Origin: a virus
Length of the DNA: 35,504 nucleotides
Direction: 5' to 3' (one strand)
IMG/VR virus record: IMGVR_UViG_3300021387_000081
Location: 1 to 35,504 of that record
Numbering within the stretch: the stretch's first letter is position 1; every line of letters starts with the position of its first letter. The position numbers were made by a program, and so were the translations under genes. This document shows, piece after piece, positions 196-35,504 of this stretch. The notes beneath the pieces were generated by a model. That model ran no database searches. It saw nothing but the letters and a program-made list of their open reading frames with translations, and was not told the origin of the DNA.

Positions 196-777
196 ATGAA
201 AATCGAAGTCAGAGCTGACGGACTGCATATAAGCGGCTACGTCAACGTCACCGGCAAGCTGAGCAGACCGGTGATAACACCCAGAGGCAAAGTCCTTGAA
301 ACTATCGAGGAGAGAGCTTTCAGCGAGGCTATCAAGAAGAACGGCGACATCACGGTGACACTCGATCACGATCAGGGGCACGCCTATGCAAATACCCGTG
401 ACGGTTCTCTCGTTCTCCGTGAGGACGCTATCGGACTTCACGCCGATGTGCTCATCACAGATGAAACAGTCATCGAAATGGCACGCAAGGGCAAACTGAG
501 AGGCTGGTCCTTCGGTATGTTCAACGTACAGGACGAAATCGAGAGCCGCGGTGAGGACGAGCTGCCGATCAGACACGTCAAGAGCCTGGAACTGGATCAT
601 GTGTCCCTCATCAAGGACAAGATACCGTGCTACGCTGCGACATCGGTGGAGTGCCGTGCAGGCGGTGACATCGACATGGAGCTGCGTTCCCTCGATATCG
701 AGCCTGTGCTTGTCATCGAGAACAAGCCGGACTACAGCGATTATGAGAACAGGCTGAAAATGCTGGAATTCGAGTGA
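196..777 (+). CDS. HK97-family prohead protease (S78/U35-like)
   Basis: 193-aa ORF lying after the portal-side cassette ORFs and before the capsid gene, separated from it by the 778-1563 cassette. N-terminal MKIEVRADGL..GYVNV and the LDHD..H pattern are typical of prohead proteases. SD aaagga lies 9 nt upstream of the ATG. Confidence 0.85.
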   Translation: MKIEVRADGLHISGYVNVTGKLSRPVITPRGKVLETIEERAFSEAIKKNGDITVTLDHDQGHAYANTRDGSLVLREDAIGLHADVLITDETVIEMARKGKLRGWSFGMFNVQDEIESRGEDELPIRHVKSLELDHVSLIKDKIPCYAATSVECRAGGDIDMELRSLDIEPVLVIENKPDYSDYENRLKMLEFE

Positions 778-828
778 AGGGCAATTGAGCTCCGGTATCG
801 CCAGTACATTCAGCTGCCGAATGGTAAA

Positions 829-1179
829 ATGAATGGCAGCAGGAGTATAGGCGGCGGAAGTCGAAAGCTCTATCATCACGATCCGGATACCGGAGGTGGC
901 GGGAGCACGAAGAAAAGTGTTGACAAATCATCAGATGATGGTGTACAATATGGTAAAGAAGAAATCAAGAATGATTTCGATGGAAAACCATATACCTATC
1001 CTGAATTACATTTACCTAAGAAAGAATATGGCACTGTTATAAGGCAAATCGATGATAACTATGAATCTAAGTATAAAGGCAAGAGTATAGGCTTTCACAG
1101 TACGTCAAAATATACCTATAAATTTGAAATACGTGGATATAACGATTATAACATTTTTTCAAAATGGAAAAATGATTAA
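829..1179 (+). CDS. Leader-linker-variable domain module (type-1 leader). The conserved coding signal already starts at 778, in frame after the protease TGA
   Basis: Same frame as the protease. Codons 787-858 encode ELRYRQYIQLPNGKMNGSRSIGGG, matching portal residues encoded at 34278-34349. The C-terminal 75 aa are AT-rich and unrelated to the other cassettes. Confidence 0.55.
   Translation: MNGSRSIGGGSRKLYHHDPDTGGGGSTKKSVDKSSDDGVQYGKEEIKNDFDGKPYTYPELHLPKKEYGTVIRQIDDNYESKYKGKSIGFHSTSKYTYKFEIRGYNDYNIFSKWKND
920..949 (+). promoter_or_regulatory. Sigma-70-like promoter inside the linker codons (TTGACA-18-TACAAT)
   Basis: ttgaca at 920-925 and tacaat at 944-949. Flank aaaagtgTTGACAaatc matches the four other junction promoters. 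This is the weakest of the set. Confidence 0.45.
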
Positions 1180-1395: not shown

Positions 1396-1425
1396 ACCGC
1401 CCTCATTGAGAGCGGTTTTCTTATG
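1396..1425 (+). terminator. Intrinsic terminator T1 (family GCGGTTTTCTTATG)
   Basis: accgccctca/tgagagcggt stem followed by ttttcttatg. The tail is shared with T2, T3 and T4. Confidence 0.7.
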
Positions 1426-1563: not shown

Positions 1564-2718
1564 ATGAAGAAACTTATCGAAAGAAGAGCCGGACTTGTAG
1601 TCCTTCTCAATTCCATGCTGGAAGCTGTAAAGACCGAAAACAGAGCCTTTACAGAAGAGGAGGCAAAGAAGTTTGACGAGACAGAGGCTGAGATCAGGCA
1701 GCTTGATGCTACTATCAAGGCGGAGGAGAGAGCGAAGGGGATAGCTGATCTCCCTGCACCTCAGGCAGCTCCCAAGGCTGAACAGCTCACACAGGAGCAG
1801 ATCGAGGAGAGAGCTTTCGCTGACTTCATAGGCGGCAAGATCACCGAGATGAGAGCAGGCGAACAGAACATCGACTGGACTAACGGTGCATCAACAGTGC
1901 CTACGACTATCGCCAAGCGTATCATCGATGCAGCAGTTGATATGTGTCCCATTCTCGCAGGAGCTGAGGTGTACCACGAAAAAGGCACGCTCAAGATCCC
2001 CAAGTGGACAAAGGCGAACAGCACCCACGATGTGACTGTAGCCTATGCAACTGAGTTCACTCCGCTCACAGCTGACAGCGGCAAGTTCACATCGGTGGAT
2101 CTGGGCGGATACCTTGCAGGTGCTCTCGTTCTTATCGGAAAGAGCGTTATAAACAGTTCAGCGATCAATGTGACAAATTTCGTCATCAACAAGATCGCTG
2201 AGAAAGTGGCACAGTTCCTTGAACAGGAGCTGCTCAAGGGCTCAGGTTCTTCCGCAGCTCAGGGCGCTACCAAGACAAGCAATGTGGTGACTACCGGCAC
2301 TGCGCTTGCTATCGGTTTGGATGATCTTATCGCACTTCAGGCTGCTGTAAAGCAGAAGTATCAGAAAAACTCCTGCTGGACAATGACATCCAATACTTTC
2401 ACTGCACTCAAACAGCTCAAAGACGGCGACAACAGACCTCTTATCCAGCCTGATGTTACAGCGGAATTCCCCTTCAGACTTCTCGGAAAGCCTGTGCATC
2501 TCTCTGATAATATGGACGAGATCGGCGGCAACAAGCTTGCTGTCCTCTACGGTGACTACAGCGGACTCTCCGTGAACTTCCGTGAGGATATCGGTATCGA
2601 GGTACTCAGGGAAGCATACCACACTCAGCATGCTATCGGCATTGATGCGTGGTTCGAGTTCGATTCAAAGGTAACAGATGAGCAGAAGCTTGCTGTGCTC
2701 AAGATCAAGGCATCATAA
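1564..2718 (+). CDS. Major capsid protein, HK97 fold, with N-terminal coiled-coil delta/scaffold-like region
   Basis: ATG 1564 lies 8 nt after aaggagg. N-terminus MKKLIERRAGL..EEEAKKFDE..IRQLDA is delta-domain-like. The length and position after the protease fit. The upstream 47 codons of the tracked ORF overlap hairpin B. Confidence 0.9.
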   Translation: MKKLIERRAGLVVLLNSMLEAVKTENRAFTEEEAKKFDETEAEIRQLDATIKAEERAKGIADLPAPQAAPKAEQLTQEQIEERAFADFIGGKITEMRAGEQNIDWTNGASTVPTTIAKRIIDAAVDMCPILAGAEVYHEKGTLKIPKWTKANSTHDVTVAYATEFTPLTADSGKFTSVDLGGYLAGALVLIGKSVINSSAINVTNFVINKIAEKVAQFLEQELLKGSGSSAAQGATKTSNVVTTGTALAIGLDDLIALQAAVKQKYQKNSCWTMTSNTFTALKQLKDGDNRPLIQPDVTAEFPFRLLGKPVHLSDNMDEIGGNKLAVLYGDYSGLSVNFREDIGIEVLREAYHTQHAIGIDAWFEFDSKVTDEQKLAVLKIKAS

Positions 2719-15516: not shown

Positions 15517-15873
15517 TTAAAATGCCTTTTCTTCTTCATCGTTCAGCCACTCTGCTACTGCGGCTATGTACAGTGAGTTTGATGGGATATCATCTGATCC
15601 TTGCAGGCTGTTGCTGAATATTTCCTTTGACAGCTCACGGTCACGGCGATGCCAGCTTTCCTTTATTGCCGATCTGGCTGCCCGCTCGACTGCTGCTGAG
15701 GTCGTGCCAAATTCTTCCGCAAGCTTCGGATAGAGCAGCTGCGACAGGTTAGTCACTGACCTCGGATCGCGCATGCAATATGCGATCCCTTTTTTTATGT
15801 ACTGGTACCCCTTGACACTCGGCTGGTTCCCCAGTAACATCAGTATTCTTGAAATTCTGCGCCCGATATTCAT
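15517..15873 (-). CDS. Spo0A C-terminal (DNA-binding) domain protein lacking a receiver domain
   Basis: VKGYQYIKKGIAYCM...LYPKLAEEFGTTSAAVERAARSAIKESWHR aligns with the B. subtilis Spo0A segment IKGYLYLREAI...[30 protein letters not shown]. The start is MNIGRR after aaggag. Confidence 0.8.
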   Translation of the reverse strand: MNIGRRISRILMLLGNQPSVKGYQYIKKGIAYCMRDPRSVTNLSQLLYPKLAEEFGTTSAAVERAARSAIKESWHRRDRELSKEIFSNSLQGSDDIPSNSLYIAAVAEWLNDEEEKAF

Positions 15874-15918
15874 AATTGCTCCTTTCAAAATATCGAGTAA
15901 CGTAATGACATCTGATGC

Positions 15919-15942
15919 CGTGTCCATTTTCGTGTCCATTTT
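15919..15942. repeat. Tandem 12-nt repeat cgtgtccatttt x2, candidate integrase arm-type sites
   Basis: Same core GTGTCC(A/G)TTTT and same orientation as the pair at 16137-16160 on the other side of the attP core. Confidence 0.5.
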
Positions 15943-16001
15943 ATTGCAGAAAACATTAATATCCACTTTGTTTTCTTAAATCTCACAAAGAATATGGAAA
16001 T

Positions 16002-27941: not shown

Positions 27942-28016
27942 GGCAGGTTGGAACAGCGGCAGTTCGCAAGGCTCATAACCTTGAGGTCGTGGGTTCGAGT
28001 CCCACACCTGCAACCA
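27942..28016 (+). tRNA. tRNA with CAT anticodon (Met, or Ile2 if lysidine-modified)
   Basis: Manual cloverleaf: acceptor ggcaggt/acctgca, D stem gaac/gttc, anticodon stem caagg/ccttg with loop ctCATaa, T arm gtggg-ttcgagt-cccac, and an encoded ACCA. Positions 1 and 72 are G and A (unpaired). Confidence 0.8.
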
Positions 28017-28100: not shown

Positions 28101-28304
28101 ATGGACATAAACAAATGCACCTGCGGAGGACTTGCAGAGCTGAAACGAGAGTACGCGAAAAATAGCGTGAGCATGAAAATAGAGTGCATTTCCTGCGGAC
28201 GAAGTGGGAGAACAGTCACTCTCACTGCCTCAGGTCCGATACCCGAAGCAATGCTCGACAGATTCGCTGAGCAGCTGACAGCAGACTGGAACGCCGGCAG
28301 ATGA
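28101..28304 (+). CDS. Lar-family restriction-alleviation-like protein
   Basis: 67 aa with C.CGG...C.SCG and a C-terminal A.DWN..R, the Lar-family pattern as I recall it. SD ggaggg. Confidence 0.55.
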   Translation: MDINKCTCGGLAELKREYAKNSVSMKIECISCGRSGRTVTLTASGPIPEAMLDRFAEQLTADWNAGR

Positions 28305-28660
28305 AGAAGGCATGTCCGTACTGCGGAGGCATCCACAGCAGCGGCGAAGTCTGCGCGAAAAAGCCGGCAGAGAAGAACGCTTCATCCGGCGCAGATGTGT
28401 TCCGCGGCAGCTATGAGTGGAAGGAAAAGCGTGGATACATCATGCGCCGTGACAAGTATCTCTGTCAGGCGTGTCTTCACGGTATAGGCGGAAAGATCCG
28501 GCTCTGCAACGAGGAACTATCAGTGCATCATATACGGCCGCTGAAAACTAACTTTGAGTTGCGTTTAGATGAAAAAAACCTGATAACACTATGCCGTTTT
28601 CATCACGAAAAGGCAGAAAGCGGAGAAATTTCTGCGGAAAAATTGTTAAAAATCTTGTAA
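28301..28660 (+). CDS. HNH endonuclease (terminase-associated)
   Basis: Contains C.YCGG, YLCQAC, VHHI.PL and LCRFHH, and lies immediately upstream of terS. Confidence 0.85.
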   Translation: MKKACPYCGGIHSSGEVCAKKPAEKNASSGADVFRGSYEWKEKRGYIMRRDKYLCQACLHGIGGKIRLCNEELSVHHIRPLKTNFELRLDEKNLITLCRFHHEKAESGEISAEKLLKIL

Positions 28661-28743: not shown

Positions 28744-29214
28744 ATGAAAGGACGTGATACTGTGGCGAGACCGGCAATGAGTGCGAAAACTACGTCAAAG
28801 CACCTTACGAAGGCGGAGGCTGAGGCAAAGTCCTCGACCGAAGAACTGCTCAGAGGCAGGGCAGACAGGCTGCGTCCGCCTAAGTATCTGACGACTGCGC
28901 AGAAGAAGATCTTCAAGTTCATCGTCCGGGAACTGGAGGGCAGCGGCATCCTTGGCAATCTGGACATCTATGTGCTGACCGAGTGCTGCATCGCGCTTGA
29001 CAGGATGCAGGAGATAGAGAGCAGGATCAATCAGGATCCGGTGCAGCTCAGCAATGACAAGCTGCTGCAATCGAAGGACAGATATACGAAGTCCTTCTTC
29101 CGCTGCTGCAATGAGCTGTGCCTGAGTCCTCAGAGCAGGGCGAAAATGGGCAACCTCAACTTGCAGGCGAAGGAAGAGAATCCGCTGCTGAAGGTGCTGA
29201 GCGATGATGAATAA
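28744..29214 (+). CDS. terS: Terminase small subunit (P27 family)
   Basis: Contains P.YLT..QKKIFKFIV.EL...GILGNLD...L...C.ALDR, typical of P27-family small subunits. Confidence 0.8.
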   Translation: MKGRDTVARPAMSAKTTSKHLTKAEAEAKSSTEELLRGRADRLRPPKYLTTAQKKIFKFIVRELEGSGILGNLDIYVLTECCIALDRMQEIESRINQDPVQLSNDKLLQSKDRYTKSFFRCCNELCLSPQSRAKMGNLNLQAKEENPLLKVLSDDE

Positions 29215-29839
29215 AGACTGGTTCATAGATTACGCGGAACATGCGGTCAGAGTGATAGACATCGAGACACGCTGGTATGAGCTCAGAGGCTGGATAACAA
29301 AAAACGGAAGGCATATCCTGATTGGCGATGATGAGGGTGGCAGCTCCACCAGCGGAGCAGGCAGAAAAGCTGCCAAAAAGGTTGACAAAGCCGGGGAAAG
29401 TGGTATAATTGAAGAAAAGACAGGAGAAACGGCGGGAACTGATGTGCATAAAGTTGGAAAGATAGATGTTGAAAAGTTTGAAACTATTGCAAATGGAAGA
29501 ATTCTCACCGACGAGGTGATCATAACAGATAATCGGATCGAACACATTATTGAGCGAAGAGGTCAGAAGTTTTATGACGATTTTAAAGGCTATTTTCCTG
29601 AAATAATAGAAGCACCCGACTATATATTCAAAGATGATATGGACAATACAGCTATTGTGTCTAAATCATATAGCCATAAGGGAAAAACAGTAAACTTAGT
29701 TCTTAGGCTCGTAGTTGAAGGGGAAAACCCAAGCTATAAGAATTCTATACTAACTGCAATTGGTGAGAACGAGAAAAGATTTGCTCAACGTTTACGCAAT
29801 AACGTTCCTGTGTATAAAAAAGTTGACAAATCAGAATAA
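29204..29839 (+). CDS. Type-2 leader, Gly/Ser linker and PBECR-like (barnase-EndoU-colicin E5/D-RelE fold) nuclease domain
   Basis: 211 aa. The leader is WFIDYAEHAVRVIDIETRWYELRGWITKNGRHILIG. The C-terminus ITDNRIEHIIERRG...PEIIEAPDYIFKD..NTAIVSK...VNLVLRL resembles phage PBECR domains. The gene sits between terS and terL. Confidence 0.7.
   Translation: MMNKDWFIDYAEHAVRVIDIETRWYELRGWITKNGRHILIGDDEGGSSTSGAGRKAAKKVDKAGESGIIEEKTGETAGTDVHKVGKIDVEKFETIANGRILTDEVIITDNRIEHIIERRGQKFYDDFKGYFPEIIEAPDYIFKDDMDNTAIVSKSYSHKGKTVNLVLRLVVEGENPSYKNSILTAIGENEKRFAQRLRNNVPVYKKVDKSE
29219..29325 (+). repeat. 107-nt direct repeat (leader coding), partner at 31762-31868
   Basis: 9 mismatches by eye. Five fall in the codons for ELRG and all five are synonymous. 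Confidence 0.9.
29382..29409 (+). promoter_or_regulatory. Extended -10 consensus promoter inside the linker codons (KKVDKAGESGII)
   Basis: TTGACA at 29382-29387, a 16-nt spacer ending in tgg, and TATAAT at 29404-29409. Confidence 0.55.
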
Positions 29840-29851
29840 ATGTGATATAAT
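29823..29851 (+). promoter_or_regulatory. Extended -10 consensus promoter at the 3' end of the PBECR-like ORF (KKVDKSE-stop)
   Basis: TTGACA at 29823-29828, a 17-nt spacer ending in tga, and TATAAT at 29846-29851. Confidence 0.6.
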
Positions 29852-29857
29852 GAAGGT

Positions 29858-29980
29858 AAGATAAGAGTAGGTTATCAGAGGTGGTAAATTTCGTAGCGAC
29901 CACACGCCGCTGGTAACGACAGGGAGTAATCCCGAGAGATGCAGGAGAATGCTACGCCTGCCTGATAACCACTCTTTCCA
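29858..29980 (+). ncRNA. Candidate structured RNA between terS-side cassette and terL
   Basis: A 15-bp long-range helix (29863-29878 with 29962-29976, one bulged A) encloses hairpins 29881-29903, 29922-29933 (GUAA loop) and 29941-29961. Two hairpin loops carry complementary hexamers cgtagc and gctacg. Confidence 0.45.
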
Positions 29981-29981
29981 G

Positions 29982-30014
29982 ACCGCTTCGAGAAATCGGA
30001 GCGGTTTTCTTATA
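29982..30014 (+). terminator. Intrinsic terminator T4 (family GCGGTTTTCTTAT)
   Basis: accgcttcga/tcggagcggt stem with GAAA loop, followed by ttttcttata. Confidence 0.7.
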
Positions 30015-30041
30015 CCCGGACGCAGAAAGGAGCTGACAGCA

Positions 30042-31742
30042 ATTGACATAGTGAAGAACAGCAGAGCTTATAAATATGCTCTGTGGTGTACCGAGCCGGA
30101 CAATCACTATGTCGGGCGGTACATAAAGAAGCAGGCGGTGATCTGGCTGGAGATAGCGGACGGTCAGAGCGATGAAGCATATGTCTGTGAGAAGCGCTGG
30201 AAGAAGATAACGAAGCTGCTGAAGATCATCATGCACCCTGACCTCGGACATTCGATGTATGAGGGACTTGAGGACTACGCAGTTTTATTCATATATGCCT
30301 TGTTCTGTACAAAGCGCCGGAGCGACAGTCTCCGGTACTACGAGACCGGGCTTTTAGAGATCGCGAGGAAGAACTTCAAGACGTTCACCTCAGCGGTCAT
30401 TTTTATTATCGGACTGCTGACAGAGCCGAAGTTCAGCCGCTTTTTCAGTGTGGCACCGGATCTGAAACTCTCCAGTGAATTGCAGGTGGCTATCAAGAAG
30501 ATAATCAAGTCGAGCCCCTGTCTGGCGGACGAGAAGGTGTTCAAGCTGCTGCGGAAGGAGATACGCTGCAAGCTGACTGACTCTGAGTATACTCCTCTTG
30601 CTTACTTACAGGACAAGATGGACGGAAAGCTTGCAAATATGTTTCTTGCTGACGAGTGCGGAGCAATGGACAACTATCCCATAGAAGCCATGCGATCCTC
30701 ACAGATCGTGCTGAGGGAGAAGCTTGGCATCATCATCTCTACCCAGTACCCCAATGACAACAATGCTATGCTGGAAGAGGTTGACAACGCCAAAAAGATC
30801 CTTGACGGACTACGGCATGGAAGGGTGTTCGCACTGCTCTATGAGCCGGATGATGAGTTCAAGACCGGCGATGCGTGGATGACATCGGACACAGCGCTGT
30901 ATCAGGCTAATCCGGTGGCGTACGCCCATGAATACGTCATGGATGACCTGAGGGCGAAGCGTCAGGCTGCCATAGATTATGAGAACAAGCGGGAGAACTT
31001 CCTGTGCAAGCACATGAACATCCTCTACAAAGGACTCGGAGTTGAGGGATTTGTCGAGATAACGAAGGTAAGACTGTGTAAAGTTCCGGCGGATGCTGAG
31101 TTCTGGAGGGGCAGACAGGTATATATCGGGCTTGACCTCTCTCAGACCGATGACAATACCTCGGTCGCAATGGTGACATATGATGCGGATGAGGATATGA
31201 TATACGTCAAGGTCTGGGGATTCATCCCGGCTGACCGCATCGACGAGAAATCCCAGCGCGAAAAGGTGGATTACAAGAAGCTCATAGCCGCAGGAGAATG
31301 CTTTGCCTGCGGTGATGAGGTCATTGACTACGGCTTTGTGGAGCGGTTCATACAGTCGCTGCCGGAGCAGTACGGCGTTGAGATAGTTCAGCTGGGCTTT
31401 GACCGGTACAATGCTATCTCCACAGTACAGAAGCTGGAAAGCGGAGAGGATCCGATCGAGTGCGTTGAGATTAGACAGCACAGCAGCGTCTTACACAGAC
31501 CAACGAAGCTGCTGAAAGAACGTATCCTGAGCCGTAAGCTGCGGTATGAGGAGAATCATATGCTGGAGATCAACTTCCAGAACGCCAGATGCACCGAGGA
31601 CACGAATCTGAACAAGTATGTCAACAAGAGAAAGTCCGCCGGCAAGGTGGATATGGTGGTATCTGTCATAAACGCGCTGTATCTCTTGCAGGTGAATGTG
31701 CTTGACAGCATGGAGCAGGGGTTCGGGTGCCAGATCATATGA
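30042..31742 (+). CDS. terL: Terminase large subunit (start uncertain: ATT 30042 or GTG 30051)
   Basis: A Terminase_1-like sequence over about 560 aa. The tracked 5' extension contains terminator T4. SD aaaggag lies 9 nt before ATT and 18 nt before GTG. Confidence 0.85.
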   Translation: MDIVKNSRAYKYALWCTEPDNHYVGRYIKKQAVIWLEIADGQSDEAYVCEKRWKKITKLLKIIMHPDLGHSMYEGLEDYAVLFIYALFCTKRRSDSLRYYETGLLEIARKNFKTFTSAVIFIIGLLTEPKFSRFFSVAPDLKLSSELQVAIKKIIKSSPCLADEKVFKLLRKEIRCKLTDSEYTPLAYLQDKMDGKLANMFLADECGAMDNYPIEAMRSSQIVLREKLGIIISTQYPNDNNAMLEEVDNAKKILDGLRHGRVFALLYEPDDEFKTGDAWMTSDTALYQANPVAYAHEYVMDDLRAKRQAAIDYENKRENFLCKHMNILYKGLGVEGFVEITKVRLCKVPADAEFWRGRQVYIGLDLSQTDDNTSVAMVTYDADEDMIYVKVWGFIPADRIDEKSQREKVDYKKLIAAGECFACGDEVIDYGFVERFIQSLPEQYGVEIVQLGFDRYNAISTVQKLESGEDPIECVEIRQHSSVLHRPTKLLKERILSRKLRYEENHMLEINFQNARCTEDTNLNKYVNKRKSAGKVDMVVSVINALYLLQVNVLDSMEQGFGCQII

Positions 31743-31749
31743 GGTGGAT

Positions 31750-32385
31750 ATGGATAATAATTGGTTCATGGACTACGCGGAACATGCGGTCAGAGTGATA
31801 GACATCGAGACACACTGGTATGAATTACGCGGCTGGATAACAAAAAACGGAAGGCATATACTGATTGGTGAAGAAGGCAGTTCTTCCGGCGGAGCAGGCA
31901 AGAGTATTGACAAATCTGCGAAAAGTGGTATAATAAAATCAGGAGCGGTGAGTGGTGCATTATCTCCTGCCAGCAAAGAAGCACAGGCTCATGCTGAGCA
32001 ATACTATGAGTCTGTTCGTAAAATGAAAACAGATGTAAAAAACATCTCAAATAATACCGGCTTTAGTGAAAGCGACATTTTGCAAATAAAGAATCATGTA
32101 TTCATAGAAGAACATGATTTGGGCGGAGACGTCCCAGAGCGTTTTTATCCCAATTATGCTATGGCTCAATCATGGCAAAGGCTTATTGAGGGTAAAAACA
32201 TCCAGAAGCACGATATTACACTGCTTCATCACGAAAAAATGGAAAGCGATTTGATGAAGAAGGGCTTATCTCAGATAAAAGCTCATAGTATATCTGAGAA
32301 AAAGTTTAATTATGCTAAAGAAAGTAGGGAGTATTATGCTGAGATTAATAAACATAGCGATAGGACTAAAAACAATCGAAGCTGA
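31750..32385 (+). CDS. Type-2 leader, Gly/Ser linker and an unrecognised C-terminal domain
   Basis: 211 aa. The leader is WFMDYAEHAVRVIDIETHWYELRGWITKNGRHILIG. The C-terminal region ...IKNHVFIEEHDLGG..PERFYPNYAMAQSWQRLIEGKNIQKHDITLLHHEKMESDL has no homology to the other cassettes. ATG 31750 follows gaggtgg. Confidence 0.7.
   Translation: MDNNWFMDYAEHAVRVIDIETHWYELRGWITKNGRHILIGEEGSSSGGAGKSIDKSAKSGIIKSGAVSGALSPASKEAQAHAEQYYESVRKMKTDVKNISNNTGFSESDILQIKNHVFIEEHDLGGDVPERFYPNYAMAQSWQRLIEGKNIQKHDITLLHHEKMESDLMKKGLSQIKAHSISEKKFNYAKESREYYAEINKHSDRTKNNRS
31762..31868 (+). repeat. 107-nt direct repeat (leader coding), partner at 29219-29325
   Basis: See the partner repeat. A 40-nt block tacgcggaacatgcggtcagagtgatagacatcgagacac is identical in both. 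Confidence 0.9.
31907..31934 (+). promoter_or_regulatory. Extended -10 consensus promoter inside the linker codons (KSIDKSAKSGII)
   Basis: TTGACA at 31907-31912, a 16-nt spacer ending in tgg, and TATAAT at 31929-31934. Confidence 0.55.
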
Positions 32386-32584
32386 TTATATCCCTGAAAA
32401 TAGTGATAAGTCAGCACATATAACGCTTGATATAAAAACAAGGGATTATACTGCCGAGAGTATCAAAGAATTCGGTTCAATGTATGGCAGAATGGCTGCA
32501 AACGGGCTTATAAGGACCCTTGATGAGCTAAAAAGCGGCAAGAGGAAAGAAATTCCCGAAGAAAGACTTGTTATGTGGTATTAA
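32336..32584 (+). CDS. 82-aa protein overlapping the 3' end of the upstream variable domain, candidate cognate partner
   Basis: ATG 32336 lies 5 nt after agggag and overlaps the upstream gene by 50 nt. AT-rich. Confidence 0.5.
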   Translation: MLRLINIAIGLKTIEADYIPENSDKSAHITLDIKTRDYTAESIKEFGSMYGRMAANGLIRTLDELKSGKRKEIPEERLVMWY

Positions 32585-32604
32585 TACCTAAGGTGGGAGG
32601 ATTA

Positions 32605-32721
32605 ATGAAAGTTAAGTACACTGGTAAAACAAGTTTTCTTGTTCTGACAAACGGAAAGATATATGATGTCATTTCTGTCGAAAAAGGTTGGTACAGAATC
32701 AAAGACGACAAAGGTGCTTAA
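32605..32721 (+). CDS. 38-aa short paralogue of the ORF at 34721-34882
   Basis: MKVKYTGKTSFLVLTNGKIYDVISVEKGWYRIKDDKGA compared with MKVKYIGKQYLDTAFEKDKIYEVISVEKGWYRIMTELDEDYLFPPECFEIVEE. SD ggtgggagg. Confidence 0.45.
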   Translation: MKVKYTGKTSFLVLTNGKIYDVISVEKGWYRIKDDKGA

Positions 32722-32811
32722 AGCAACTAAAAAAGGTGAATATCGTGATAACGAATACCGAACGGTAGTAAATAAATTCCTTGATAATCAGCAGAAAGGT
32801 GGGCTTTTTGA

Positions 32812-32922
32812 ATGGAAGAAATGAATGTAGTTCTTGACGGATCAAATAAGGAAGGCTCTGAGAGACTTGCTGAAATGATCAAAAGACTTGAGGAAGAAAA
32901 GAAAAAAGATAAGACCGTCTGA
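32812..32922 (+). CDS. 36-aa charged peptide (speculative)
   Basis: SD aaaggtggg lies 8 nt upstream. The stop lies inside the T3 stem. Confidence 0.3.
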   Translation: MEEMNVVLDGSNKEGSERLAEMIKRLEEEKKKDKTV

Positions 32923-32944
32923 GAGATCAGGCGGTTTTCTTATG
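32914..32944 (+). terminator. Intrinsic terminator T3 (family GCGGTTTTCTTATG)
   Basis: accgtctga/tcaggcggt stem with loop gaga, followed by tttcttatg. Confidence 0.7.
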
Positions 32945-32983
32945 CCTATATTAAAACGCGAAGTGAAGTAAACAACGCTTGAA

Positions 32984-33030
32984 AGCATTTGTGACCGGCA
33001 CCAATGTCGGCTGCAAGTGCTGTTTTTATA
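32984..33030 (+). promoter_or_regulatory. Conserved extended hairpin plus U-tract, copy C (upstream of portal)
   Basis: agcatttgt (32984-32992) pairs with gcaagtgct (33013-33021). Inner stem is ccggca/tgtcgg, followed by gtttttata. Confidence 0.65.
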
Positions 33031-33047
33031 TCCAAACCACGAAAGGA

Positions 33048-34724
33048 GTGGTCAAAATAGGACTTTTCAGACGAAAAAAGCGGCAGGAAATAAGGGCGGA
33101 TACAGCTCAGAACGGCGAAAACACCATACTGACGTTCTTCGGACTGACCGGAGAACTTACGCGGGAGGCTGCGCTGAGCATACCGACGGTATCAGCCTGC
33201 ATCGGCAAGATAGGGGAGACCATATCGCGGCTGCCGGTGAAGCTTTACAGGAAGGATGAAGAGCAGGTCACGGAGATATCCGACGATGACCGGCTGAAGC
33301 TGCTCAACGGCAGCACCGGCGACACTCTCAGCACTGTTGACATGTGGAAAGCAGCGGTGGAGGACTACTACCTCGGGCGCGGAGCATGGATATACGTCAA
33401 CAGCGACGGTCTGAGTGTCCGGAGCCTGCACTATGTGGACAGCCGGAACGTGAGCATCATGTGCAACAATGATCCGATATTCAAGGCATTCAGAGTGCAG
33501 ATAAACGCGCAGAACTATTATGATTTCCAGTTTATCAAGCTGCTGAGGAAGACGCGGGACGGCTACACGAACATCCCGTTGCAGGAGGAGGCATCCTCGG
33601 TACTTTCGGCAGCGTGGAACGCTCTGAAGCTGGAGAACATGATGAACTCCAACGGCGGCTGCAAGCCGGGCTTCCTGAAAGCGAAGAACAGGCTCTCGGA
33701 TGCGGCGATAGCAGCGATCAGGGAAGGTTACCAGAAGGTCTATGACAACGAGCAGAAGCGTGACAAGATAATCGTGCTGAATGACGGTGTTGACTTCGAG
33801 GCGATATCCTCAACGGCTGCGGAGCTCCAGATGAACGAGAATAAGAAGACCAACAGCATCGAGATCTGCAAGCTGTTCGGCTTCCCTCATACGGTCATTG
33901 ACGGCGGAGCATCCGATGACGACAACAAGAAGTTCATTTCGGCGGTCATATCGCTCCTGAATCAGATCGAGACAGAGCTGGACAACGTTCTCCTGCTTGA
34001 ATCCGAGAAGGAGCAGGGGTATTACTGGGCGTTTGATACCAAGGAACTGACACGCGGCAGTCTTCTTGAACGTATGCAGGCTTATGAGATAGCCAAGCGG
34101 AACAACATCCTGCAGGTGGATGAGATCCGCCGGGAAGAGGACTATGAGCCTCTCGGCTTCAACTATATCACCCTCGGTCTTGCTGATGTTCTCCTTGATC
34201 CTGTTACTATGGAGGTCTATACCCCCAATACCGGACAGACAAAGAACCTTGTTACCGGTGAGGAACGGGCACTTACAGAGCTGAGGTACCGCCAATATAT
34301 CCAAGGTCCTGACGGAAAGATGCAGGGGAGCAGAAGCGTAGGCGGAGGAAGAGCGACGAAAAAGGTTGACAAATCCAAAAAAACTGATATAATAAAATTA
34401 GAGGATATTGAGGTCGGAAAGTCACTTGGAGCAAAGGCTAAAAACTATGACATTATGGATTTGGAAACGGGTGAACATTTTAACCTTGTTGAAAGGACCA
34501 GTTTGCAAGATGTTGAGGTCTTTGCTGGAAAGGGCGTTAAATCTGAGTTCCGAAAAGCTGATAAATATGCTAAAAAATACGGCGGTAAAGCCAAAGATTG
34601 GCAACACGCTAAAGGCACAGGAACTGTAGATTATTACGGTGAAGGGCGAAAAGCTGAATTACACTGGGCACAGTGTGAAGGTATAGGAAAACACGATTTT
34701 TTCATAAAGAGGTGGTTGGAATGA
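33048..34724 (+). CDS. Portal protein (HK97 family) with a roughly 130-aa C-terminal leader-linker-toxin-like extension (start uncertain: GTG 33048 or ATA 33057)
   Basis: The portal core includes ALSIPTVSACIGKIGETISRLPVKLY. After ELRYRQYIQGPDGKMQGSRSVGGG comes an AT-rich domain VGKSLGAKAKNYDIMDLETGEHF...WQHAKGTGTVDYYGEGRKAELHWAQ...FFIKRWLE, which resembles C-terminal toxin domains seen on MuF/gp7 head proteins. Confidence 0.85.
   Translation: MVKIGLFRRKKRQEIRADTAQNGENTILTFFGLTGELTREAALSIPTVSACIGKIGETISRLPVKLYRKDEEQVTEISDDDRLKLLNGSTGDTLSTVDMWKAAVEDYYLGRGAWIYVNSDGLSVRSLHYVDSRNVSIMCNNDPIFKAFRVQINAQNYYDFQFIKLLRKTRDGYTNIPLQEEASSVLSAAWNALKLENMMNSNGGCKPGFLKAKNRLSDAAIAAIREGYQKVYDNEQKRDKIIVLNDGVDFEAISSTAAELQMNENKKTNSIEICKLFGFPHTVIDGGASDDDNKKFISAVISLLNQIETELDNVLLLESEKEQGYYWAFDTKELTRGSLLERMQAYEIAKRNNILQVDEIRREEDYEPLGFNYITLGLADVLLDPVTMEVYTPNTGQTKNLVTGEERALTELRYRQYIQGPDGKMQGSRSVGGGRATKKVDKSKKTDIIKLEDIEVGKSLGAKAKNYDIMDLETGEHFNLVERTSLQDVEVFAGKGVKSEFRKADKYAKKYGGKAKDWQHAKGTGTVDYYGEGRKAELHWAQCEGIGKHDFFIKRWLE
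34366..34393 (+). promoter_or_regulatory. Extended -10 consensus promoter inside the portal linker codons (KKVDKSKKTDII)
   Basis: TTGACA at 34366-34371, a 16-nt spacer ending in tga, and TATAAT at 34388-34393. Confidence 0.55.
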
Positions 34725-34882
34725 AAGTCAAATATATAGGTAAACAGTATTTAGATACAGCTTTTGAAAAAGACAAAATATATGAAGTTATTTCGGTTGA
34801 AAAAGGCTGGTATAGGATAATGACTGAGCTTGACGAAGATTATCTTTTTCCACCTGAATGCTTTGAAATCGTAGAAGAATAA
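34721..34882 (+). CDS. 53-aa small protein, candidate cognate partner, paralogue of 32605-32721
   Basis: ATGA overlap with the portal stop. SD agaggtgg. Confidence 0.55.
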   Translation: MKVKYIGKQYLDTAFEKDKIYEVISVEKGWYRIMTELDEDYLFPPECFEIVEE

Positions 34883-34945
34883 AGAAAACAAGCGTAATCT
34901 ATAATTCTAAGGGCAACTTCCTCACGTTTGAAAGGGAGTGAGCAT

Positions 34946-35212
34946 ATGTGTAAACTTTTTGATGAATGGGCATCAGAGATTGAGATGTTTTGTCAGAAAA
35001 ATGATCTCAGCTTTGACAAGGCAAAGACACTTTCGCAGTGTTGGGGAAAAGACGATCTTATCTTGCAGTACTACGATAAAGAAAAGGGGAAAAACGGACT
35101 GCTCGATGAAACACCTATGCCTGTTGTTCTCTGGATAAAACGTGATAAGAATGGAAATCTTTCATTTGAAAAAACTGAGCATACTGAAAAATACCTTGGA
35201 AAAGTTTCCTAA
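34946..35212 (+). CDS. 88-aa hypothetical protein (cassette cargo)
   Basis: ATG 34946 lies 7 nt after agggag. It is followed directly by terminator T2. Confidence 0.6.
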   Translation: MCKLFDEWASEIEMFCQKNDLSFDKAKTLSQCWGKDDLILQYYDKEKGKNGLLDETPMPVVLWIKRDKNGNLSFEKTEHTEKYLGKVS

Positions 35213-35221
35213 TACTTCAAA

Positions 35222-35251
35222 ACCGCCCTCACTGAGAGCGGTTTTCTTATG
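35222..35251 (+). terminator. Intrinsic terminator T2 (family GCGGTTTTCTTATG)
   Basis: accgccctca/tgagagcggt followed by ttttcttatg. It differs from T1 at one loop base. Confidence 0.7.
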
Positions 35252-35274
35252 TCCATTTGAAGGAGGTGAGGAGA

Positions 35275-35504
35275 ATGGACGAGAAAGCCTTACAGATAGT
35301 CAGAGATTATATATTTGCACATCTCGACAAGACGGATACTGTTCCGCCTTTTGATGTCTATATGGTCTGGAAGTGCAAAGCCTTGCAGAACTGGAAGTAT
35401 CTTATCTCCAGTACGCTGTGCGACGGTATGTACTATGAGCTGACATACAACGGCGACAAGAAGGAATGGTATCTCGACGCTTACAAGAAGTTCGAGAATG
35501 TTGT
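35275..35504 (+). CDS. Small conserved phage protein (79 aa in total; continues at 1-120)
   Basis: ATG 35275 follows aggaggtgag. Translation MDEKALQIVRDYIFAHLDKTDTVPPFDVYMVWKCKALQNWKYLISSTLCDGMYYELTYNGDKKEWYLDAYKK resembles a widespread head-module hypothetical family. Confidence 0.75.
   Translation, partial: MDEKALQIVRDYIFAHLDKTDTVPPFDVYMVWKCKALQNWKYLISSTLCDGMYYELTYNGDKKEWYLDAYKKFENV
35398..35504. repeat. Terminal overlap identical to 1-107
   Basis: See feature 1-107. Confidence 0.95.

Follow-up and report, generated by a model that had tools for sequence, protein, structure and literature searches.

Four exchangeable cargo-partner cassettes with candidate translated promoters in the head module of a predicted temperate gut phage: a putative variant of the MuF polymorphic toxin system on non-MuF carriers

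The head and packaging genes of the phage genome IMGVR_UViG_3300021387_000081 of IMG/VR, analysed here over its whole length of 35,504 nucleotides (nt; hereafter referred to as the window), are interspersed with four cassettes of similar organisation, the structure, exchange and probable function of which are the subject of this study. The genes for the small and the large terminase subunits (terS, terL), the portal protein and the prohead protease are each trailed by one cassette (C1, C2, C3 and C4, respectively), which consists, in this order, of a conserved leader, a Gly/Ser linker, a junction, an AT-rich cargo domain, a partner and a common terminator (Table 1). All the genes of the head module lie on the + strand, in the order terS, C1, terL, C2 with small open reading frames (ORFs), portal with C3, small ORFs, protease, its in-frame extension, an ORF of 65 amino acids (aa) and the major capsid protein (MCP), and the stop codon of terS overlaps the start of C1 (ATGATGA). 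Confidence in this architecture is high. From the junction or cargo to the terminator the GC fraction is 0.33-0.37 as against 0.51-0.54 in the flanking head genes, a step of ~15 points at each junction. An earlier interpretation made from the letters alone (the sequence-only reading) had proposed four proteins in which a leader and a Gly/Ser-rich stretch are followed by KK(V/I)DKS and an AT-rich C-terminal domain; the leader positions, the linkers and the junction peptides were all confirmed in the translation, and the composition of the domains is as proposed. The array had also been taken to wrap across the contig junction, which is indeed the case, since the first 107 nt of the contig are identical to its last 107 nt and the contig is circular.

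The window carries genes of a temperate lifestyle (integrase, ImmA-like protein, Rha), its proteins are identical to those from an NCBI 'Ruminococcus sp.' metagenome bin, and the phage appears to be of a temperate gut type (Ruminococcus-type). A megablast search with the 6.8-kb region against the GenBank phages gave no match. Neither a MuF nor a min_cap2 N-domain was detected by Pfam in the four cassette proteins, and tblastn searches of the window with eight MuF/min_cap2 proteins matched the cargo parts only, in agreement with the sequence-only reading, which had noted the absence of a MuF/gp7 gene.

Table 1. Coordinates of the head-module and cassette features in the window, in map order from terS across the contig junction
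Feature	Coordinates	Strand	Basis or remark
terS, P27-family small terminase	28744-29214	+	NCBIfam TIGR01558, E 1.8e-16; ORF list
C1 ORF	29204-29839	+	leader 2, linker, junction, PBECR2 cargo
C1 leader 2	29204-29326	+	N-terminal half like protease C-terminal tail; then ELRGWITKNGRHILIG motif at 29279-29326
C1 Gly/Ser-rich linker	29327-29381	+	translation
C1 predicted junction promoter	29382-29409	+	TTGACA-N16-TATAAT, TG extension, 12/12; encodes KKVDKAGESGII
C1 cargo, PBECR2 RNase-fold domain	29441-29839	+	Pfam PF18810, E 1.2e-8; phrog_29609, E 9e-36
Second perfect promoter match in C1	29823-29851	+	TTGACA-N17-TATAAT; encoded by C-terminal KKVDKSE-stop
Skipping-rope RNA (RF02924), partner of PBECR2 cargo	29871-29969	+	51.1 bits vs gathering score 36.7
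C1 terminator	29980-30013	+	hairpin and GCGGTTTTCTTAT, -18.6 kcal/mol
terL	about 30043-31742	+	start approximate; TerL_ATPase and TerL_nuclease found on L028 orthologue
C2 ORF	31750-32385	+	ORF list
C2 leader 2 and linker	31750-31906	+	ELRGWITKNGRHILIG motif at 31822-31869
C2 predicted junction promoter	31907-31934	+	TTGACA-N16-TATAAT, TG extension; encodes SIDKSAKSGII
C2 cargo, all-helical domain of unknown function	31936-32385	+	invariant residues including H, D, HE..E; AlphaFold2 (AF2) pLDDT 89.6
C2 cognate partner, 82 aa	32336-32584	+	overlaps cargo 3' end; GGGAG ribosome-binding site
Truncated SH3-like ORF (phrog_34144), orphan partner of C3-type cassette	32605-32721	+	within C2 cassette
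Remnant of L190-type cargo 3' end with C2 terminator	32711-32946	+	DNA identity to L190; peptide match
C2 terminator hairpin	32915-32943	+	exact repeat and folding
Long hairpin and U-run element 5' of portal	32984-33030	+	-20.5 kcal/mol, z -3.2
Portal protein proper	about 33048-34277	+	Pfam Phage_portal, E 9e-44; start approximate; whole portal ORF with extension to 34724
Portal-fused leader 1 (ELRYRQYIQGPDGKMQGSRSVGGG) and linker	34278-34365	+	homology with L028 ends at 34353
C3 predicted junction promoter	34366-34393	+	TTGACA-N16-TATAAT, TG extension; encodes KKVDKSKKTDII
C3 cargo, alpha+beta domain of unknown function	34395-34724	+	conserved W, K, H, E (WQHxKG, AE(L/V)HW); AF2 pLDDT 90.8
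C3 cognate partner, SH3-like 53-aa protein (phrog_34144)	34721-34882	+	phrog E 7e-16; start overlaps portal stop (ATGA)
88-aa ORF, probably orphan partner of another cassette type	34946-35212	+	homologue follows L193 cargo
C3 terminator	35222-35250	+	exact repeat and folding
HK97-family prohead protease	196-777	+	TIGR01543, E 1.4e-9; Peptidase_S78 on L028 orthologue; end ...KMLEFE-TGA
In-frame TGA, candidate readthrough codon	775-777	+	context GAG TGA AGG GC
In-frame extension after protease	778-1179	+	ORF translation
Post-protease leader 1 (ELRYRQYIQLPNGKMNGSRSIGGG at 787-858), second LYHHDPDTGGGG stretch, linker	778-919	+	no in-frame start before 829
C4 predicted junction promoter	920-949	+	TTGACA-N18-TACAAT, 11/12; encodes KSVDKSSDDGVQY
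C4 cargo, ~80-aa domain of unknown function	934-1179	+	few relatives; homologues on portal C-termini (P0244-P0247)
C4 cognate partner, 65 aa	1191-1388	+	pairing with C4-type cargo
C4 terminator	1396-1424	+	exact repeat and folding
Major capsid protein	1564-2718	+	

The cargo of C1 is the only one with a predicted activity, that of an RNase. Its resemblance to PBECR nucleases, suspected from the letters, was substantiated by a Pfam match to PBECR2 above the family cutoff (35.6 bits vs gathering score 27.1, residues 90-205). Within this domain, a GTG ahead of the conserved His is a candidate internal start, and standalone PBECR2 genes of 131 aa are common. The skipping-rope RNA lies directly 3' of PBECR2 in the window and in 11/11 further loci (12/12 in all, with two copies in L021; the loci concerned fall among L001-L024 and L028), and is absent at the leader-2 loci with other cargos. 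The promoter arrangement at the 3' end of the C1 ORF follows every PBECR2 homologue, and in the window it appears to be the promoter from which the RNA is transcribed. This pattern suggests that PBECR2 and skipping-rope form a protein-RNA pair, in which the RNA may act as an antitoxin-like partner or a substrate. A GP20-b RNA (RF03003) was also observed in another phage with a MuF-type carrier, ~100 nt 3' of a skipping-rope RNA (L001, 6636-6695).

Homologues of the C1, C2 and C3 cargos are very common as C-terminal tails of the Phage_Mu_F (PF04233) and Phage_min_cap2 (PF06152) proteins, with some on portal tails, and those of C4 were found only on portal tails and leader carriers. The sequence-only reading had likened one domain to MuF-toxin tails and left two unrecognised; such tails are found for three of the four cargos. 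The MuF-fused C2 homologues begin to match the window at 31906 (tblastn), and the C3-type cargo, with 750 cluster representatives, is always C-terminal. The small downstream ORFs, which had been assigned to the position of immunity genes, behave as cognate partners, a pairing in which confidence is high: the SH3-like partner (phrog_34144) follows the C3-type cargo in 80/80 loci, a C2-partner homologue follows the C2-type cargo in 47/80 (and also in L198), and the C4 partner its cargo in 4/4, with a 73-aa homologue of the latter after a related portal tail in L028. Sequence-profile searches of PDB with the C2 and C3 domains gave nothing credible, and Foldseek searches with their AF2 models gave no match at E <1e-3; C3 matched only homologous uncharacterised or 'minor capsid protein' tails in BFVD. 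C2, C3 and C4 have no Pfam match, and NCBIfam and PADLOC scans of all the cargos and partners revealed nothing significant. Among the cargos of sister loci, the Pfam scan gave a single borderline match, to DUF4258 in L191.

All the four cassettes end at one terminator family. The sequence GCGGTTTTCTTAT occurs exactly, without a mismatch, at 1412, 30001, 32931 and 35238 only, once at each cassette end, and in each case folding makes it the 3' arm of a stable hairpin that is followed by a U tract. An automated terminator scan found none of the four, because the U tract is interrupted (UUUUCUUAU); they were identified instead by the exact-repeat search and folding. The common terminator claimed by the sequence-only reading is thus present, with the correction that in C1 it comes after the skipping-rope RNA. 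A separate observation concerns a bipartite hairpin that occurs in three copies on the + strand (32984-33030, 129-175 and 1494-1540), each followed by UAUUUUUAU, with folding energies of -18 to -24 kcal/mol and compensatory changes between the copies. Each lies just 5' of a ribosome-binding site, namely that of the portal, the protease or the capsid gene, and L025 and L028 contain the element as well. No Rfam family matches it, and it could be a second terminator or attenuator requiring late antitermination, or an element for RNA stability or translation.

At the left end of the cargo, the junction KK(V/I)DKS...(S/D)GII appears to be a consensus sigma-70 promoter (TTGACA-N16/17-TGnTATAAT) translated in frame. 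Four of the five TTGACA copies in the array (29382, 31907, 34366 and 29823, not 920) belong to 12/12 matches with a TG-extended -10 hexamer. The whole genome has six 12/12 sites, where block shuffles give a mean of 0.01, and the lysogeny/early control region holds the two remaining ones together with nearly all of the 11/12 sites. The conservation of the junction was examined in IMG/VR loci encoding homologues of the C2 and C3 cargos, with a score of >=10/12 counted as a promoter and other windows of the same genes as controls. A promoter at the fixed position, 29 nt before the domain, was found at 43/56 distinct C2-family loci (77%) and 29/57 distinct C3-family loci (51%), as compared to 6/309 and 4/326 control windows, respectively. 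Among these promoter-bearing loci, the -10 hexamer is TATAAT in 35/43 (C2 family) and 17/29 (C3 family), and the TG extension is present in 31/43 and 25/29. The peptides encoded vary widely (VDKSGKSGII, FTSANNDDII, LTNSVNGGKL, SSTGGRGDII, LDIETSDGTM, DLTKS), and the -35 hexamer is read in two frames; at the L028 portal junction, for example, GAC TTG ACA AAA encodes DLTK. Amino-acid replacements keep the hexamers, as GIM is encoded by TATAATG and changes of K to N or I retain TTGACA. Since the hexamers, the TG and a spacing of 16-18 nt are retained while the peptides and the frame change, the conservation operates at the nucleotide level, and the view of KKVDKS as a peptide signal was not borne out.

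A Shine-Dalgarno (SD) sequence and start codon follow the promoter at 0-1/43 C2-family, 3/29 C3-family and 3/5 PBECR2-family loci; in the PBECR2 family, a GTG or TTG is retained immediately ahead of the conserved His, 7-8 nt downstream of a purine-rich run. As a conserved SD and start are lacking in the C2 and C3 cargos, an internal transcript would mostly serve the downstream partner gene, and we regard it as quite probable that the junction is a functional promoter feeding the partner.

The relatives of the phage differ from it in their cassettes, and confidence in the polymorphism is high. The related locus L028 (~94% identical) aligns with the window over 28861-31742, 33041-34353, 182-927 and from 1396 onwards. 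Both at the portal and at the protease, L028 has a different promoter-to-terminator segment (homology breaks off at 34353 and 927 and starts again at 182 and 1396), and it has no C2, terL abutting the portal gene. The phage of L190/L203 (94-96% identical) aligns up to 29418, just past the -10 hexamer of C1, and again from the terminator at 29980, with a different cargo in between; it is without C2 and C4, and its protease ends in KMLG-TAA directly before the capsid region. The proposal that the cassettes are interchangeable is borne out, as these relatives differ exactly between junction and terminator or lack the cassettes. The sequence-only reading had, however, taken the leader and the terminator as the recombination boundaries; the terminator holds as the right border, but the left border is the junction promoter and not the leader. 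In other phages one cargo type is found on different carriers and one leader type with different cargos, with at least five different cargos on the leader-2 carriers of the terS locus.

Traces of earlier exchanges are seen within the cassettes. The tail of the C2 cassette (32711-32946) is 99.2% identical to L190 4643-4878, which covers the 3' end of a terS-locus cargo, and retains the last ~35 codons of that cargo within 32663-32824; the segment 34883-35250, with the 88-aa ORF and the terminator, matches the last part of another portal cassette, in L203, at 99.5% identity. These two remnants and the truncated SH3-like partner appear to be debris of displaced cassettes, and the combination of displaced tips with orphan immunity genes resembles that of polymorphic toxin loci. 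A C4-type cassette was also noticed outside a head module, in L025-L027, between an AAA_25 fragment and a large serine recombinase and followed by genes for dockerin proteins; it comprises a degraded remnant of a portal tail and leader, a 66-aa partner, the terminator and the hairpin-U element, and is probably a prophage remnant.

The carriers to which the cargos are joined are of three kinds. C3 is fused directly to the portal, and all twelve portal subunits would therefore carry it. The leader of C3 is shared with C4 (ELRYRQYIQ at 34278 and 787), and over 24 codons the two copies of this leader 1 show 14 synonymous and 4 non-synonymous differences. The sequence-only reading had placed leader 1 after the protease, where it does occur, but behind an in-frame TGA. 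The cassette-bearing proteases on four contigs (L208 and L209 being near-identical) end in ...KML(E/D)(F/Y)E-TGA-AGR-GC and are open in frame for 130-174 codons thereafter; outside the window, this arrangement of protease, TGA and extension is seen in L028, L208/L209 and L211/L197. L208 and L211 have no ATG, GTG or TTG for at least 80 codons after the TGA; the one in-frame start earlier than this in L028 and the window is the leader Met of 'GKM' (829 in the latter), which comes after the conserved ELRYRQYIQ. Cassette-free proteases stop two residues earlier, at various stop codons, with junk sequence after. The post-TGA peptide of L197 is ELRGWITKNGRHILIG, the motif of leader 2, and differs from the window copies of this motif at 7-8/16 codons, all synonymously. 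A leader that has no start codon and is under purifying selection makes readthrough likely, and low-level UGA readthrough yielding a few protease-cargo fusions is probably the simplest explanation. Leaky decoding of UGA as Trp is known in Bacillus. Recoding of TGA in the whole genome was considered and rejected, as the portal ends at a TGA overlapping the next ATG and the only tRNA has the anticodon CAU.

The third carrier is the short leader 2 of C1 and C2, which stands by itself after terS and terL. Its two ELRGWITKNGRHILIG copies in the window differ at 5/16 codons, all synonymous, and comparisons of the window with L197, L189, L190, L191 and L193 give 0 non-synonymous and 4-9 synonymous differences, with one non-synonymous difference in L195. 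The two leader types of the sequence-only reading are both present but are not separate: the position after the protease TGA, held by leader 1 in the window, is taken in L197 by the second half of leader 2, and both thus represent versions of a single ELR...G(R/K)(H/F/M) motif. Leader 2 can be aligned over its first half with the last ~20 residues of the protease (shuffle tests, p = 0.0002-0.1). The carrier P0137 of L198 starts with a clear copy of the last ~33 protease residues (IEIRSLCIEPEYVIDYSDYERRIRLIEER), followed by ELRYNHNHDEKGRF; it had been considered as a stop-free protease-cargo fusion, which was rejected, as the contig shows a standalone carrier after terS. A BLASTP match between leader 2 and the protease tail (E 2e-10) was discounted, its signal having come from the common linker and junction. 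The C-terminal tail of the HK97 protease is reportedly an encapsidation signal, a finding credited to Duda et al. 2013, and we infer by this analogy that leader 2 may be a capsid-targeting tag.

The leaders also contain a candidate site for release of the cargo. The protease homologues retain two sites of the form E-x-R plus A, S or G near their C-terminus (SVECR|AGG, MELR|SLD), and E-x-R-A occurs four times in the MCP delta domain (ENRA, EERA, EERA and EMRA; MCP residues 1-100, window 1564-1870), the boundary of which, TEMR|AGEQN, is conserved in >20 capsid homologues. E-x-R-[ASG] is put forward as a candidate specificity motif of the S78-type protease, and cleavage of the leaders at ELR by this enzyme is proposed tentatively. 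That the leader motif is general to all the carriers was rejected, as it was found in 5/113 C2/C3 loci; most of the carriers without it are of the MuF type, which fits a site needed only on carriers anchored to the portal or the protease tail.

Taken together, the array is likely to consist of four toxin/immunity-type cargo-partner cassettes from the pool of the MuF toxins, placed on non-MuF carriers of the capsid interior, with the partner transcribed from an embedded promoter. In the model proposed here, in which promoter activity, readthrough, encapsidation, cleavage, toxicity and immunity are all inferred from sequence, the carriers would be the portal C-terminus (C3), the protease by way of a leaky in-frame UGA (C4) and a standalone protease-tail-like peptide of ~40 residues (C1, C2), and each cassette would also be an autonomous transcription unit, with a host sigma-70 promoter at the carrier/cargo junction and the common intrinsic terminator. 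During late growth, the carrier-linker-cargo fusion would be translated and co-assembled into the procapsid, where the maturation protease might cleave the leader at E-x-R and free the cargo, which would exit the virion together with the DNA. Encapsidation through the portal, the protease or the protease-tail tag is judged slightly better than an even chance. In the prophage or in early infection, the host RNA polymerase would start at the junction promoter; the C2 and C3 transcripts would yield the downstream partner only, while the PBECR2 transcript may also give a free domain and the second promoter would give the skipping-rope RNA. The terminator would insulate the late genes downstream, and promoter and terminator may serve in addition as boundaries of homologous recombination for cassette exchange. 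The more far-reaching proposal that the cassettes are carrier-agnostic plug-ins with a translated host promoter as left border, that MuF-less loading proceeds by UGA readthrough and a ~40-residue tag released at E-x-R, and that PBECR2 and skipping-rope are an effector/antidote pair is, as a whole, speculative.

Several observations weigh against this interpretation. C2, C3 and C4 have no recognisable fold or family, their putative toxin nature being deduced only from architecture and pairing, and the partners could be chaperones or packaging factors rather than immunity proteins. Some homologous loci have no junction promoter, for example those with QAPPV-repeat linkers. TGA is also the stop codon in 8/21 cassette-free proteases, and the choice of stop codon by itself is therefore not significant. 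BLASTP of the leader-only segments gave no alignment between leader 2 and the protease tail, and their homology, drawn from an intermediate sequence, positional equivalence and modest shuffle p-values, is of moderate strength. The P1' residue of the leaders (G, Y or F) also differs from the A of the delta-domain sites.

Among other explanations, the one that survives best, though it is held to be unlikely, is that the cargos are injected anti-defence effectors for host takeover, with the partners as inhibitors or chaperones that keep them inert in the producer cell. Architecture and carriers would be the same as for toxins; PBECR domains fused to MuF or portal have been predicted to be injected counter-defence RNases (PMC5512222), and PADLOC and Pfam assign C2, C3 and C4 to no known toxin family. 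Nevertheless, the strict one-to-one pairing of cargo and partner and the orphan partners are a signature of toxin/immunity systems, and a constitutive-type promoter feeding the partner fits immunity of the lysogen better than chaperoning, so that toxin/immunity is rated the more probable of the two; the target alone separates them, and both may hold. It is improbable that the cassettes are ordinary morons or toxin-antitoxin modules inserted in the head operon, expressed from their own promoters in the lysogen, with leaders that are relics and nothing packaged. They do have a predicted promoter and a terminator of their own, a deviant GC content and positions between genes that are adjacent in relatives, and the internal GTG and SD of PBECR2, as well as the common standalone genes, make a free protein plausible. 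However, each of the four cargos is read in one frame with its carrier, as is the case on many unrelated carriers; neither a start codon nor an SD follows the promoter in C2- and C3-type cargos; purifying selection acts strongly on the leaders, even behind the protease TGA; and every carrier is a protein of the capsid interior (portal, protease, MuF) or a look-alike of the protease tail. Conserved peptide motifs often precede the tip of polymorphic toxins (PMC3482391), and the junction is translated in frame exactly at the domain boundary, but the idea that it is a peptide signal for cleavage or docking, with an incidental likeness to a promoter, is hardly credible, given hexamers, TG and spacing that persist through changes of peptide, frame and single amino acids, and an identical promoter at the C1 stop codon that would drive a non-coding RNA.

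With toxin/immunity-type cassettes as the preferred interpretation, the array is seemingly a variant of the MuF polymorphic toxin system, described for temperate phages by Jamet et al. 2017 (PMC5576092) and represented by Bxa and Apk2 (PMC11699363), that is without the MuF carrier domain. The sequence-only reading had set it apart from the MuF-toxin architecture, which is correct as regards the missing domain, but, sharing cargo pool, partner logic and genomic niche with that system, it is a variant of it rather than something outside it. In common with the MuF toxins, the C1-C3 homologues are tails of PF04233/PF06152 proteins followed by small partner genes, located in the head/packaging module of temperate Firmicutes phages, and a capsid-resident carrier is proposed to have its variable tail delivered with the DNA. 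The window proteins differ in that they have no N-terminal MuF domain (PF04233, PF06152, MuF3 or MuF4); in that their carriers are the portal C-terminus, a UGA-trailed protease and a protease-tail-like peptide of 40 residues; in that there are four cassettes instead of one; and in that the partner slot of C1 holds an RNA and not an immunity protein. The word 'promoter' occurs 0 times in PMC5576092, and an embedded promoter with a common terminator is mentioned neither there nor in PMC11699363.

Other systems share parts of this organisation. PBECR-portal fusions have already been described among the polyvalent proteins (Iyer et al. 2017, PMC5512222), which share with the window PBECR2, the fusion of effectors to portal or MuF and the predicted packaging and injection; they have 2-15 domains, whereas each window carrier has one cargo, with a dedicated partner gene or RNA and its own promoter and terminator. 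In Rhs effectors, internal promoters just 5' of the toxin tip transcribe the tip and the immunity gene independently of the secretion system (PMC7618764). In the window, a sub-genic promoter just upstream of the variable tip is likewise predicted, with conservation as DNA across loci, but the window has a phage capsid in place of the type VI secretion system, and a Gly/Ser linker with E-x-R in place of the Rhs autoprotease motif, and its C2-/C3-type tip is apparently untranslatable from the internal transcript. The capsid-targeting sequences of T4 internal proteins and P1 DarB (PMC9024508) are likewise short terminal peptides for carrying a passenger protein into the procapsid, possibly removed by the prohead protease; the putative tag of the window seems, in contrast, to be derived from the C-terminal tail of the protease itself and forms a separate small carrier after terS and terL. 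As for the skipping-rope family (RF02924; PMC5737381), the window copy scores above the gathering threshold and has a 3' terminator as described, but it occupies the slot of an immunity protein directly after PBECR2 and has its own perfect promoter match; Weinberg et al. 2017 (PMC5737381) associate skipping-rope with a nearby protein.

Polymorphic toxins in general have a conserved trafficking part, a variable C-terminal tip, recombination at the junction and displaced orphan tips and immunity genes, all of which are seen here. Morons are reportedly, after Hendrix and Juhala, autonomous promoter-gene-terminator units in the late operons of phages. The cassettes resemble them in having their own predicted sigma-70 promoter and terminator, a deviant composition and an insertion between late genes adjacent in relatives (C2 absent in L028 and L190, C4 absent in L203), but differ in that the promoter lies inside an ORF and the cargo is in frame with the upstream structural protein, without an independent start; only the partner ORFs, and possibly PBECR2, have starts of their own. 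Carriers formed by protease readthrough or a protease tail, a translated promoter as left border, a four-fold array in a head operon and a PBECR2/skipping-rope pair in the immunity slot were not found in the literature searched.

These comparisons suggest that the MuF-type cargo/partner modules are not tied to MuF and may be grafted onto any protein of the capsid interior. Under the MuF toxin model, lysogens must be immune (PMC5576092), and the biological role and regulation of the MuF-type phage toxins have been described as unknown (PMC11699363). The predicted in-frame junction promoter offers a testable answer, namely that immunity may be expressed in the lysogen while the toxin stays under late control, in parallel with the Rhs effectors. 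The leaders suggest a natural minimal encapsidation tag for HK97-like capsids together with a candidate cleavage motif, which would be useful for engineering phages loaded with proteins, and the protease gene is a candidate case of UGA readthrough in a phage. An orphan RNA, skipping-rope, is linked to a specific RNase-fold protein, and the effector/antidote pairing, if true, would give this RNA a function.

Among the remaining features of the window, the terL gene requires a corrected start. The mechanical ORF call (597 aa, start at 29949, with the same call in L028) begins inside the skipping-rope RNA and crosses its terminator, and it cannot therefore be the true start, which must lie downstream of the AAAGGAG at ~30027, at ATT 30043 or GTG 30052. 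An 80-aa DUF6275 protein (Pfam E 4e-29) is encoded downstream of the C3 terminator and ahead of the protease, across the contig junction (35277-35504, continuing at 108-119); the segment differs from L028 but has 95% identity to L029. A small HNH-type endonuclease-like ORF (28301-28660, +), Cys-rich and with HH...N...HH motifs as judged by eye, is located directly 5' of terS, a pairing of HNH and terminase genes that is usual in cos phages. The tRNA with the anticodon CAU (Met or Ile2; 27942-28013, +) lies just 5' of this HNH-terS region, and a similar tRNA is found in L191 and L021. In the lysogeny/early region, a 149-aa protein with the C-terminal DNA-binding domain of Spo0A (15520-15966, -; Pfam E 5e-26) is encoded next to several near-consensus promoters (14881, 15198 and 15488), and could be a phage-borne mimic of the sporulation regulator.

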